DNA of 56,923 nucleotides from Girardia tigrina (lineage: Eukaryota): the NCBI GenBank assembly GCA_001938485.1, contig MQRK01254986.1, positions 1 to 56,923 on the forward strand, read 5' to 3'. Of this stretch, positions 9,450 through 52,790 are shown in pieces (within the stretch, counting starts at the first letter, position 1; each line of letters opens with the position of its first letter). Under the pieces are notes generated by a model. That model was not told the DNA's origin, did no database searches, and was given only the letters and a program-made list of their open reading frames with translations. A program made the translations under genes and the position numbers.

Positions 9450-9650
9450 TATGAGGAATATTTTGAATGTTTGTTGTTTTGTGTTTGAATGTGTATGTTG
9501 ATTTGGAATTGTGTCTTTCCTACCCAAATGGATGATTATTATTTTATTTCTTATTATTTAAAAATATGTAATATTTAAATTTATTTCTTATTTAAAATAA
9601 TTGTAAAATTTTAAATAAGTTAATTAGTTTTTACAATTTTAATAAATAAA
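9450..9650 (+). mobile_element. solo-LTR-like family copy A (5' part only, truncated)
   Basis: Starts TATGAGGAATATTTTGAATG, then a GT-rich tract and the core TTCCTACCCAAATGG. No 3' end or TSD found. Confidence 0.65.
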
Positions 9651-9704
9651 TCAAACTAATATTTTTTTTTAAAAACAACACTCCTCCATTAAAAAATATA
9701 TTTT

Positions 9705-9747
9705 ACGACAATATATTTCGACGGATCTACCGTTATCTTCAGGTCAC
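9705..9747 (-). ncRNA. minimal type I hammerhead ribozyme of a Penelope-like element
   Basis: Minus strand reads GUGAC CUGAAGA U AACGG UAGAU CCGUC GAA A UAUA U U GUCGU. It has stem I GUGAC/GUCGU, the CUGANGA core, stem II ACGG/CCGU, GAAA, a palindromic UAUA stem III loop and a UH site. It lies about 70 nt 3' of the GIY-YIG stop. Confidence 0.75.
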
Positions 9748-49481: not shown

Positions 49482-49890
49482 TATTTTGATTTGATTGCAA
49501 TTTTAAATAAATGACAAATTATTTGAAGATAGAGGTCGGTGGATTTATCAAAAATTTTGAAAATAGTTGGAAGTTTTGTTTGAAAATTGTTTATAATAAA
49601 TGTATAAATTGAGTAAAAAATGATTTCTGAAATTGATGTTGCAAACACTTCTGACATTGGTTATAAAGTTTTTTAAAATACAATTTGGAACATCCTTCGA
49701 ACAATCTATTGTAGAGCTTTCATTCATAAACATCGCTTTAGAATGAAATTGAAAAAAGTTTTCAAATTCTTTTTATTTGATCAAATATGAACGATATTTT
49801 TTAATTTTAATTTCATAATAAATTTCATATAAAACCCTACCTTTTGGTTTTTTTCCACAAGGTAGGTAAAAAAATCACCAGGTTTTTTAT

Positions 49891-52790
49891 TGTTGTAACC
49901 AAGATAATATTGTTTGTTATGGTCCTTTTTGATAATAATTGGTCGTAAAACCCGCTGTTTCCGCTGTCTAATTCAATCATTGCTGTACCATAAGCCGTTG
50001 ATAGTAAAAACACGTCTCCTTTGTCTCTCCACCTTAGTTAGCTATTTTAAAATTTTTATTTCAAATTTTCGATTTCGAATTCAATGCAAAAACCAAAACT
50101 CAATTCACCTTTTAAAAATTTTTTTATTATTTCAATTACAAATTATTACAATTGATGCAGTAAAACAATACTGCAAGTTTTTTCAATATATATATATATA
50201 TATATATATATATATTAGAGAAAAATTTAGACTTTATTCAATAATAAGTTTAATTTTTTATGATTCATCAAATTTCAAAATAAAATGTCAGATAATCATA
50301 AAAACTGAAATGTTTATAATTAATTGATTCATTAATTTGAATCTTCCATTTCTCCCCCGTTTGAAGCAATTAATTATCATAATTGTCATGACTCTGTTGA
50401 CCTTCTAATCTGGAAATCTCTTCATCGCGTTCGTTAAAATTTTTTTCAGGAACATTGTCGTTCTGATGATCAATTTTACATATTTGCTCGTCTTTTCAGT
50501 ATCCCATCAATTTCAATATCTACCACTTTACATCTGTTATCAGGTCCCAGAATCAACTTCTTTACTACTCCAACAATCTTGGCCATCTTTTATTATTATC
50601 ACCCGATTCTAAAAACCATACCAAATCTTCCTTTTTCAGATCTCGGTTTTCTTTTAACAATTTACTTCTGTTCCTCCATTCGATAATTAATTCCCTTTTC
50701 CATCTGTTCCAAAATTGAATAGATTCTGTTCTAAAATTGTTAGATTCTGCACGTGCTTCCATCTGGAGTTTATATTTCCTTTTTCTGATCCTGACATCAT
50801 AGAATTACATTCTTCTTGATAACCAGCAATGATAAAATGATTTGGCATAAGTATCGGATTGTCTCTAAGATCTTCCATGGATCTCGTCAACGGTCTAGAA
50901 TTAACGATCCCCTCTATTTCTATTAAGATTGTTTCCAATTCCTCATGAGTAACTTCAACCGTACCGAGTATGGTGTATAGCGCGTTTTTGATTGTTTTCA
51001 CCATAGACTCAAAAATTCCTCCGAAATGAGGCGCCCTTGGAGGATTAAAGATCCATATAATTTCTCCATCATTTTATACCTTTAAGGCCTTGTAAGTATC
51101 TTGTTTATTTTCTACAATTTCGCCATTTATCCCTCGGAAGTTTCCTCAGTTATCCGAAATTGTCATCGATGGTCTTCCTCTTTTGGCAATAAATCTTATA
51201 AGATCATCATTTTCCAGCTTTATTGTTATCTCCAAATGTACCGTTCTACATTGAAGGCAAATAATTAAACAAATATATCTCTTCTCCTTCGCTTTTCTCT
51301 GTCCTTGTTTCGTAAGGATCGGACCAGCGAAATCAATTCCGATCTTATCGAACGCTTTTAACGGTTCTCGAAGACGAAACTCTGGAATTTCTTCCATTTG
51401 TTGGCAAATTCCTTTCGCATTTCTTCTTGAACAAACTTTACAATTTCTTTGGTAAGTTTTTTATAATTTTTCGCATTTTTGGGAACCAAAATCTTTCGGA
51501 AAATTTACAATACTGTTTATTAACAACATCACAATTTGAATGCAAACATTTATTTACAACACAAACAGATTCTTCACAACAATTTTCAGTGGTCATCTTT
51601 CTTTGATTAATATAGTTTTTGATTAAATATTTAAATNNNNNNNNNNNNNNNNNNNNGGGAAATATTAATATTACATTTTAATTTCTCATAATTTTTATTG
51701 GATAAAAATACATTATGTAATTTTTAAAATAAACATTAATTTTTAAAAATATTAAATTTAACAAGTTAAAATCGTTTACTGAAAATATTATTAAAATTCA
51801 TAATTATCAAACTTTAATTAATGAGTACTTTAATTTAATATCATTAAATTAATATCATTAGATTCAAATAATCAATAAAATAACATATCAATCCCATCTG
51901 AGTAGGAGAGTCACAAATCTAAACAGCATAAAAACAACAAACTTACAACATTCACAATTATCCCTCACACTGTTGATTAACGCCAGCACAGTGAAGATAC
52001 TCTTGATGAACATGTTCCACTATCAATTTTGTTATTGGACTTTTATTAGACAGCATTATCGGATATCATAAATTCCAAAGAAGGTACTCAGATTTTACCT
52101 TCTTTGGAATTTAAAAAAGATAGGATTTGCTTTTAATATTGAATCCTTTGCTTTAAGTGTTTTTCCTGTATTAATTAATTGTATTTGCTATTTACACCTT
52201 TCCTATTGATCTTCCTTTATTATTTCTTTTTCTGCTAATTAAAACTCACTTTCTTTATCATCATTTTCAGCTTCCTCAACTCTATCTATCATATGTGTCT
52301 CGGATATTCTTTTCAAGACCAATTTTCTCCATTTCGAATGATGATTATTAGCCACGGAATTCTCGGAATCATTTTTCTCACCAATATGCACTGTGTTCAA
52401 GACAACACCTTTTTTCTCTAACCACACTTCCGTTTTTAACTCTTTTGGTCTTTCTGGTCAATTTTCTTCCAGAAGTTGAAGGAATTTCGGGTCATTCCAC
52501 TATTTGTGTATTTCTGAAATTTGTGTCACTGAGCACCCTCTAAAAAGAATATCAGCCGGATTTTCCATTGATGGCACGTATCTCCATTGATTTCCTCTTG
52601 TAAATTCCTGAATATAACCAATTCGATTAGCAATAAATGTACTAAACTTTTTCTCGTATCTTGTCACCCAATACATAAATCCATGATGTCAGTCCAAAAA
52701 AGGATTTCATCCATGGTTATACCCAAGGCGCTGACTAATTTTATCGCCAACTTATTTCTTATAAAAATTGGAAAACATGAACTTTTATTA
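49891..52790 (-). mobile_element. BEL/Pao element 3' part (RNase H end, integrase, PPT, probable 3' LTR about 49891-50348)
   Basis: FWTD, WRYVPSMENPAD, IGIDFAGPI, ISDN, WIFNPPRAPHFGGIFE, NSRPL. Polypurine tract GGGGGAGAAA followed by TG near 50348. Confidence 0.88.
51518..51969 (-). mobile_element. solo-LTR-like family copy F (about 450 bp, small N gap), nested in the BEL integrase
   Basis: Minus strand TGTGAGGG...GTTGTTAATA with perfect TSD CTGTT (51513-51517 and 51970-51974). Confidence 0.9.

Follow-up and report, generated by a model that had tools for sequence, protein, structure and literature searches.

What kind of mobile element leaves repeats that start with the canonical TG of a long terminal repeat (LTR) but end in TA instead of CA? 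The question is raised by a 56,923-nucleotide stretch of Girardia tigrina DNA (GenBank assembly GCA_001938485.1, contig MQRK01254986.1, forward strand; hereafter the window), which holds six related repeats. An earlier inspection of the letters (the sequence-only reading) took these repeats either for solo LTRs of a single lineage that comprises several subfamilies and has a non-canonical 3' end, or for an unclassified integrase-mobilised element. We find that three of them encode, up to their last bases, the N-termini of three different Gag proteins, and we put the probability at about 85% that the repeats are solo LTRs descended from one Gag-encoding lineage that has several subfamilies and an inherited TA at the end of its unique 5' (U5) region.

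Copies, boundaries and target-site duplications

Searching the window with a profile built from the five complete copies (B-F) returned just these and the partial copy A, the next match falling to E 0.74, and thereby bears out the six coordinates and strands that had been proposed (Table 1). Copy A scores 186, compared with a maximum of 92 among shuffles, and its likeness to the family fades at about position 9675, beside a Penelope-like element that the earlier inspection had missed. The complete copies measure 388-460 bp and share 58-66% pairwise identity, with the exception of D and F, which are 81% identical. Their layout is as previously described: a TGTGA[G/T]G start, a GT-rich 5' tract, a CAGATGG core, an AT-rich spacer (12-13% GC), a late ATG and a GTT[CG][TC]TAATA end. 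Copy A deviates in its start (TATGAGG) and in its core (CAAATGG). TG opens five of the six copies and TA closes all five complete ones, in line with the earlier claim, so that canonical TG...CA ends are not found. Internally, conservation is highest in a pyrimidine tract with the CAGATGG core, which all six copies have 70-100 nt from the 5' end; a role of the core as promoter or initiator element is a guess.

When target-site duplication (TSD) lengths of 2-10 bp were tried, 5 bp alone gave matches, perfect in three copies and in four of the five bases in the other two, again as the sequence-only reading had it. Among random flank pairs (n = 193,195), a perfect match occurs in 0.31% and at least four matching bases in 3.4%. 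This test took the previously proposed element boundaries as given; they are fixed independently by the alignment, by a mariner reading frame that passes through the copy B site and by the Gag match presented below. Both insertions into coding regions of other transposons that had been noted before were recovered: the mariner transposase frame carries on through HPAYSPDLAPSDYHLF across the insertion site of copy B, and copy F sits between the His and Cys halves of the zinc-binding region of a BEL-type integrase, in a host element that is itself decayed. No sequence is common to the 5-bp TSDs. As for the termini, the imperfect inverted repeat described for copy E was found again, with 9 of 13 terminal bases complementary; it is equally good in B (9) and weaker in C (6), D (6) and F (5).

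Table 1. Coordinates of the solo LTR copies, of the Gag starts within them and of the Penelope-like element beside copy A (RT, reverse transcriptase)
Feature	Positions	Strand	Remarks
Copy A, 5'-partial solo LTR	9450-9675	+	profile match E 1e-12; local alignment to copy C over 9452-9675
Copy B, complete solo LTR, TG...TA, perfect 5-bp TSD	17886-18345	+	sits within mariner transposase gene
Copy C, complete solo LTR, TG...TA, TSD 4/5	23370-23757	-	terminal frame frameshifted
Copy D, complete solo LTR, TG...TA, TSD 4/5	37357-37798	+	internal stop in terminal frame
Copy E, complete solo LTR, TG...TA, perfect 5-bp TSD	44915-45324	+	terminal inverted repeat 9/13
Copy F, complete solo LTR, TG...TA, perfect 5-bp TSD, internal 20-N gap	51518-51969	-	
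Probable Gag start within the LTR, copy B	18252-18344	+	31 open codons; 29/31 residues identical to P0003 N-terminus
Probable Gag start within the LTR, copy E	45228-45323	+	32 open codons; matches P0002
Probable Gag start within the LTR, copy F	51519-51596	-	26 open codons; 24/26 residues identical to P0004 N-terminus
Penelope-like element adjoining copy A, outside the family	9690-10960, limits approximate	.	GIY-YIG and RT pieces
GIY-YIG frame of Penelope-like element	9822-10352	-	Pfam GIY-YIG E 1.4e-5
RT piece of Penelope-like element	about 10590-10960	+	motifs read by eye; without Pfam match

The terminal reading frame encodes a Gag N-terminus

In each complete copy, an ATG is located 79-97 nt before the end. 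The sequence-only reading had included this ATG in the layout, and its presence stands, while its most likely role as the start of Gag had been missed. From the ATG onwards, the frame in copies B, E and F is open until a final AAT codon plus one A; an in-frame ATG that is open to the end is hence seen in three of five copies, compared with 1.5-1.9% of shuffles (2000 per copy). A peptide profile built from four of the five copies, with C omitted, retrieved four proteins among 126 candidates. Copies E, B and F have terminal frames that are 92-94% identical to the N-termini of the Gag proteins P0002, P0003 and P0004, respectively, and positions 45177-45323 of copy E agree with residues 1-49 of P0002 in 46 of 49 residues. 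The likeness stops at the element end, where the database proteins continue with M-A-T, and a single extra Met in copy B stems from its TSD. The final codons of copy C are nearest to yet another Gag, P0007.

The matched Gag proteins are 376-397 aa long and have two CCHC knuckles, zf-CCHC being present in all eight close Gags. For P0002, a structure was predicted with a mean pLDDT (predicted local distance difference test) of 56.9, higher over residues 60-218. All of the top 26 structural matches of this model are retroelement or retroviral capsids, among them Copia capsid as the best row (Z 11.2, root-mean-square deviation (rmsd) 10.4, 156 aligned), the C-terminal domain of PEG10 (Z 10.0, rmsd 2.7, 84 aligned) and dArc2 (Z 9.7, rmsd 2.3, 82 aligned).

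Because the terminal frames match Gag N-termini and end together with the element, the repeats are to be read as solo LTRs in the orientation TG...TA, and we are nearly certain that they derive from a Gag-encoding LTR element. The three distinct Gag matches support the first of the two earlier proposals and leave the unclassified integrase-mobilised element without need. The body of Gag had no family-level match anywhere in the window; internal family sequence gave one weak match, at about 8320-8480, that lacked significance (E 0.6). In two database proteins, P0098 and P0081, a piece of this Gag family passes into unrelated sequence, which probably reflects insertions into other genes or elements.

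LTR anatomy and the wider Gag clade

The putative poly(A) signal of the LTR is part of the same reading frame. AATAAA, likewise missed by the sequence-only reading, precedes the end by 36-40 nt in four of the five complete copies (40 in B, 37 in E and 37 in F), D having AATACA there, and it is translated as Asn-Lys, which is invariant in all eight close Gags. In the standard LTR layout, as outlined in PMC3601003, AATAAA is followed by a GT-rich stretch and then by the integrase site. All eight close Gags also contain N-M-A-T. Judging from these sequences, the Gag start most likely falls within the LTR, and translation would run across the LTR end and a putative primer-binding site as N followed by M-A-T (N/M-A-T), the ATG at the junction arising because the last A of the LTR joins the TG of the primer-binding site.

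A profile search for further relatives of these Gags gave 85 representatives at E ≤ 1e-10. Out of 159 proteins, 84 match a capsid-only profile, and 56 of the latter are 340-420 aa long; counts refer to these 56 unless another number is given. N-M-[AS] occurs within the first 70 residues of 40 Gags, in 35 of them as N-M-A-T, another seven have M-[AS]-T at the very start and nine have neither form, the background of the N-terminal motif being 1 in 17,087 residues. The residue preceding the Met (n = 43) is Asn in 40, Tyr in two and Glu in one, and both Asn and Tyr have xAY codons, the form needed if the LTR ends in ..ACA or ..ATA. After M-A-T, Thr follows in 26 of 44 clade Gags and Arg in none. 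When worked out by hand from the tRNA table in PMC13524379, the commonest tRNA-Arg(UCG/UCU) end would read M-A-T-T and that of tRNA-Ser(GCU) M-A-T-R; the prevalence of Thr and the absence of Arg thus fit tRNA-Arg(UCG/UCU), not tRNA-Ser(GCU). At the other end of the protein, G-N, P-N or P-K is found 11-20 residues before the stop in 45/56 Gags versus 113/1620 (7%) background windows, a pattern that a -1 slippery heptamer could produce. Frameshifting by -1 is a Gypsy-like trait.

In the replication cycle that we envisage, transcription would begin upstream of the ATG in the LTR, and the bases directly after the LTR would be TGG-C-N-A-C, that is, a primer-binding site with zero spacer and a best fit to tRNA-Arg(UCG/UCU). 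Pol would follow in another frame through a -1 frameshift near the Gag C-terminus, and polyadenylation in the 3' LTR would use the AATAAA described above, making U5 very short. The integrase would take a CA end together with a TA end and cut the target with a 5-bp stagger; the end of the unique 3' (U3) region would be canonical and the U5 end TA, both passed down across subfamilies. LTR-LTR recombination following separate integrations of several subfamilies would then have left the solo LTRs.

How far this organisation extends is a wider issue. The clade of P0002-P0009 has a node support of 0.994 and comprises Gags down to 43-46% identity. We give even odds to the joint proposition that Gag begins within the 5' LTR in a broad, poorly annotated Gypsy-like clade (dozens of clusters when its Gags are grouped at 50% identity), whose LTR end and tRNA-Arg site are thereby coding, and that in the present family the poly(A) signal is coding as well and TA has stayed fixed through deep divergence. 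If true, this would imply that a Gypsy-type integrase in an animal can join a CA end on one side and a TA end on the other. Besides, the N/M-A-T signature would make LTR ends and primer type readable from unannotated Gag proteins. No description of this Gag clade was found in the literature searched.

Weighing the alternatives

Several points weigh against the account given above. The primer-binding site, the slippery site, the paired LTRs and the terminal dinucleotide of the parent are back-inferred from protein, and the start codons that place the beginning of the database Gags inside the LTR are choices of gene callers. The P0002 model is weak overall, Foldseek returned no match to it at E ≤ 0.001 (best dArc1, 1.6e-3), and its best fold match is a Copia capsid in a set that spans Copia, Arc, Ty1, Ty3 and retroviruses, the fold not separating the superfamilies. 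With respect to pol, no Gag-Pol fusion was present among 8000 longer candidate proteins scored, all matches being of Gag length, and a scan of bacterial and archaeal contigs gave 25 pattern matches, none of them confirmed. The Pfam matches to PF19259 (E 5e-4, P0041) and PF03732 (E 2e-3, P0052) are weak and both below the cut-off. As to the terminus itself, a comparison of D with F shows TA in one copy opposite 4 of the 13 CA sites in the other, and copy A itself starts with TA; moreover, when metal concentrations are physiological, Ty1 integrase depends in vitro on a terminal CA (PMC8487063), so that tolerance of TA is not a given.

The last of these points raise the question of whether the parents ended in canonical CA and each solo LTR acquired its TA by a C-to-T mutation after insertion. 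Between D and F, CA/TA (4) and TG/TA (6) indeed outnumber all other dinucleotide changes, and a start with TA, as in copy A, would be in keeping with such decay. Since AAT and AAC both encode the Asn that is observed, Gag neither forces nor forbids TA, and the proteins cannot tell CA from TA in other members of the clade. However, the same change would have been needed in all five complete copies, which are found on both branches of the P0002-P0009 clade; at the D/F rate of 4/13, the chance of this is about 0.003. In copies B, E and F, only 2-3 residues separate the encoded peptide from its Gag relative, so these copies are young, and neither TG nor CA is depleted inside most copies (observed/expected 1.2-1.65 for TG and about 1 for CA in four of five). 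We thus regard mutation after insertion as improbable and inheritance of TA as very likely. Still less credible, and in our view barely tenable, is a short stand-alone element resembling a miniature inverted-repeat transposable element (MITE), a short interspersed nuclear element (SINE) or a Penelope pseudo-LTR (pLTR), which would have captured a gag start and would move without an LTR cycle. Such an element would be in keeping with the absence of paired LTRs, a polypurine tract or a primer-binding site beside any copy in the window, with the Penelope-like neighbour that copy A abuts, and with the high density of the family (six copies, about 4% of the window). Yet three copies match three different full-length Gags, each up to the element end, the TSD length is fixed at 5 and a long terminal inverted repeat is missing, with complementarity at 5-9 of the 13 terminal bases. 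Within the window, ARAGORN detected 0 tRNA genes and Rfam gave 0 matches at gathering score, and copies B-F have no Penelope neighbour among the scanned frames.

The parent of the solo LTRs was likely of the Ty3/Gypsy type, although this is unproven because no pol is linked to the family. In favour of a Copia- or BEL-type parent, the 5-bp TSDs, the putative primer-binding site within gag and the putative zero U5 spacer are reminiscent of Ty1 (PMC4974528, PMC8487063), 89% of the classified non-TGCA plant elements reported in 10.1101/137141 belong to Copia, and the top structural match is a Copia capsid. We nevertheless consider it unlikely, given that Gag is a stand-alone frame of 340-420 aa whose conserved C-terminal G-N, P-N or P-K suits a -1 frameshift, that the weak Pfam matches are to Ty3_capsid and Retrotrans_gag, that the look-alikes in the atlas carry the same two domains, and that no Copia-gag or BEL-gag family was found for the ~47 clade Gags scanned. 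A microsporidian Ty3/Gypsy parent was rejected, as the elements described in PMC4202319 are single-polyprotein whereas Gag is separate here, and the elements of PMC10886601, as presented there, do not fit this family either.

Further candidates were discarded. No tRNA- or 5S-like segment was found that would point to a tRNA- or rRNA-derived SINE or to a terminal-repeat retrotransposon in miniature (Helenus, Ajax, Cassandra); a MITE or DNA transposon was rejected for want of adequate terminal inverted repeats, and Penelope pseudo-LTRs because a Penelope neighbour exists for copy A only. The reverse orientation, TA...CA, is ruled out by the Gag match. Copies D and E do not form an LTR pair around the RT-RNase H piece at 40036-40848, since each has TSDs of its own, they are 61% identical and the pol piece is on the opposite strand. 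Finally, we do not claim a 3' half of copy A ending at 11267, where a frame (11195-11267, +) has an in-frame ATG and similar last codons: the 3' profile gave no match there, alignment p values ranged from 0.02 to 0.83 over five comparisons and the 5-bp flanks differ.

Comparison with known elements

Terminal CA is treated as nearly invariant for animal retroviral-type integrases outside the errantiviruses. The animal Ty3/Gypsy LTRs described in PMC3601003 (Sushi, rGmr1, Mag, CsRn1) share with the present family the TG start, AATAAA followed by a GT-rich stretch, short imperfect terminal repeats and a CCHC Gag, and Sushi is similar also in its T-rich U3 and in the placement of AATAAA close to the 3' end. 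The 3' motifs of these animal LTRs terminate in ACA (AMA in CsRn1), whereas AATA closes all five complete copies here; a further difference is that the start of Gag probably lies inside the LTR here.

TG...TA ends are not new as such. They are on record for plant LTR elements, where TGTA is one of seven non-canonical types (10.1101/137141) and 941 TGTA Copia copies have been reported from lotus (PMC9804982), and TARE1 is described as having been amplified following one terminal mutation (PMC3701649). The plant TGTA elements resemble ours in that one terminal dinucleotide is altered and the LTRs are short (10.1101/137141; PMC9804982). Plant non-TGCA elements are, however, mostly Copia (10.1101/137141), whereas we deal with an animal, probably Gypsy-type family with subfamilies only 58-66% identical. 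Ty1, as portrayed in PMC4974528 and PMC8487063, has its primer-binding site within the GAG frame (PMC4974528) and ends that need no 3' processing (PMC8487063), as a zero spacer would imply here. It combines TG...CA ends with a tRNA-iMet primer and a +1 frameshift (PMC4974528, PMC8487063), unlike the present family with its TA end, putative tRNA-Arg primer and two CCHC knuckles in Gag.

Among animals, departure from TG/CA in Drosophila is reported for errantiviruses only (PMC5408687). These (gypsy, ZAM, Idefix) are likewise animal Gypsy elements with integrases that use non-TG/CA ends, but the errantiviral ends are AGT...AnT on both sides with palindromic 4-bp targets (PMC5408687), in contrast to the canonical U3 end and 5-bp TSDs seen here. 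The eight end motifs listed in an annelid survey do not include TGTA (PMC8220671). In the literature searched, whose coverage does not extend to Repbase and Dfam, we found no animal Gypsy family with TG...TA ends. The surprise is moderate, since the element belongs to an ordinary class and plants provide well-known examples of non-canonical ends. A TA end that is kept across subfamilies with Gags ~45% identical nonetheless offers a natural test of how strict the CA rule is and of how integrase and LTR end co-evolve, and LTR finders anchored on TGCA would overlook these repeats, although they account for about 4% of the window.

Neighbouring elements and minor observations

In the Penelope-like element next to copy A, the RT piece is inverted relative to the rest (Table 1); twin priming would yield such an inversion. 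Past its stop codon, near 9705-9748 (-), we noticed by eye a minimal hammerhead-like motif, for which Rfam gave no hammerhead match and whose fold (z -0.9) was no better than that of shuffles. Decayed pieces at about 7900-8100 and 9040-9270 (+) resemble, again by eye, a second Penelope-type element with a GIY-YIG-like peptide.

Other retroelement remains in the window comprise a decayed BEL-type RNase H/integrase region with DUF5641 at about 50570-52900 (-), which hosts copy F, an RT/RNase H piece from an LTR element at 40036-40848 (-), open over 271 codons and unlinked to the solo LTR family, and, at the window end (56357-56923, +), a Gag knuckle plus protease-like relic of another LTR element. 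The gag part of this last relic (56357-56812) shares just a knuckle with the Gag of the solo LTR family. Mariner relics occur at 289-591, 6786-7077, 17006-18600 and 18624-19600, and the pieces at 6791-7077 and 18624-18909 are 91% identical in inverted orientation. Tc1-like frames, three terminal-inverted-repeat pairs and a FLYWCH/MULE-like region were noted at 2060-3377, 26582-27188, 54775-55461, 34233-35229 and 53031-54436, and a GC-rich 21-bp tandem array, open in several frames, occupies positions 9-236. As for host genes, a TRP-gamma/TRPC channel gene has an exon at 16176-16565 (+), with TRP-gamma as its best match in the PDB (E 3e-35), which by itself marks the AT-rich host as an animal, and the solo LTR copies may lie in introns of this gene.

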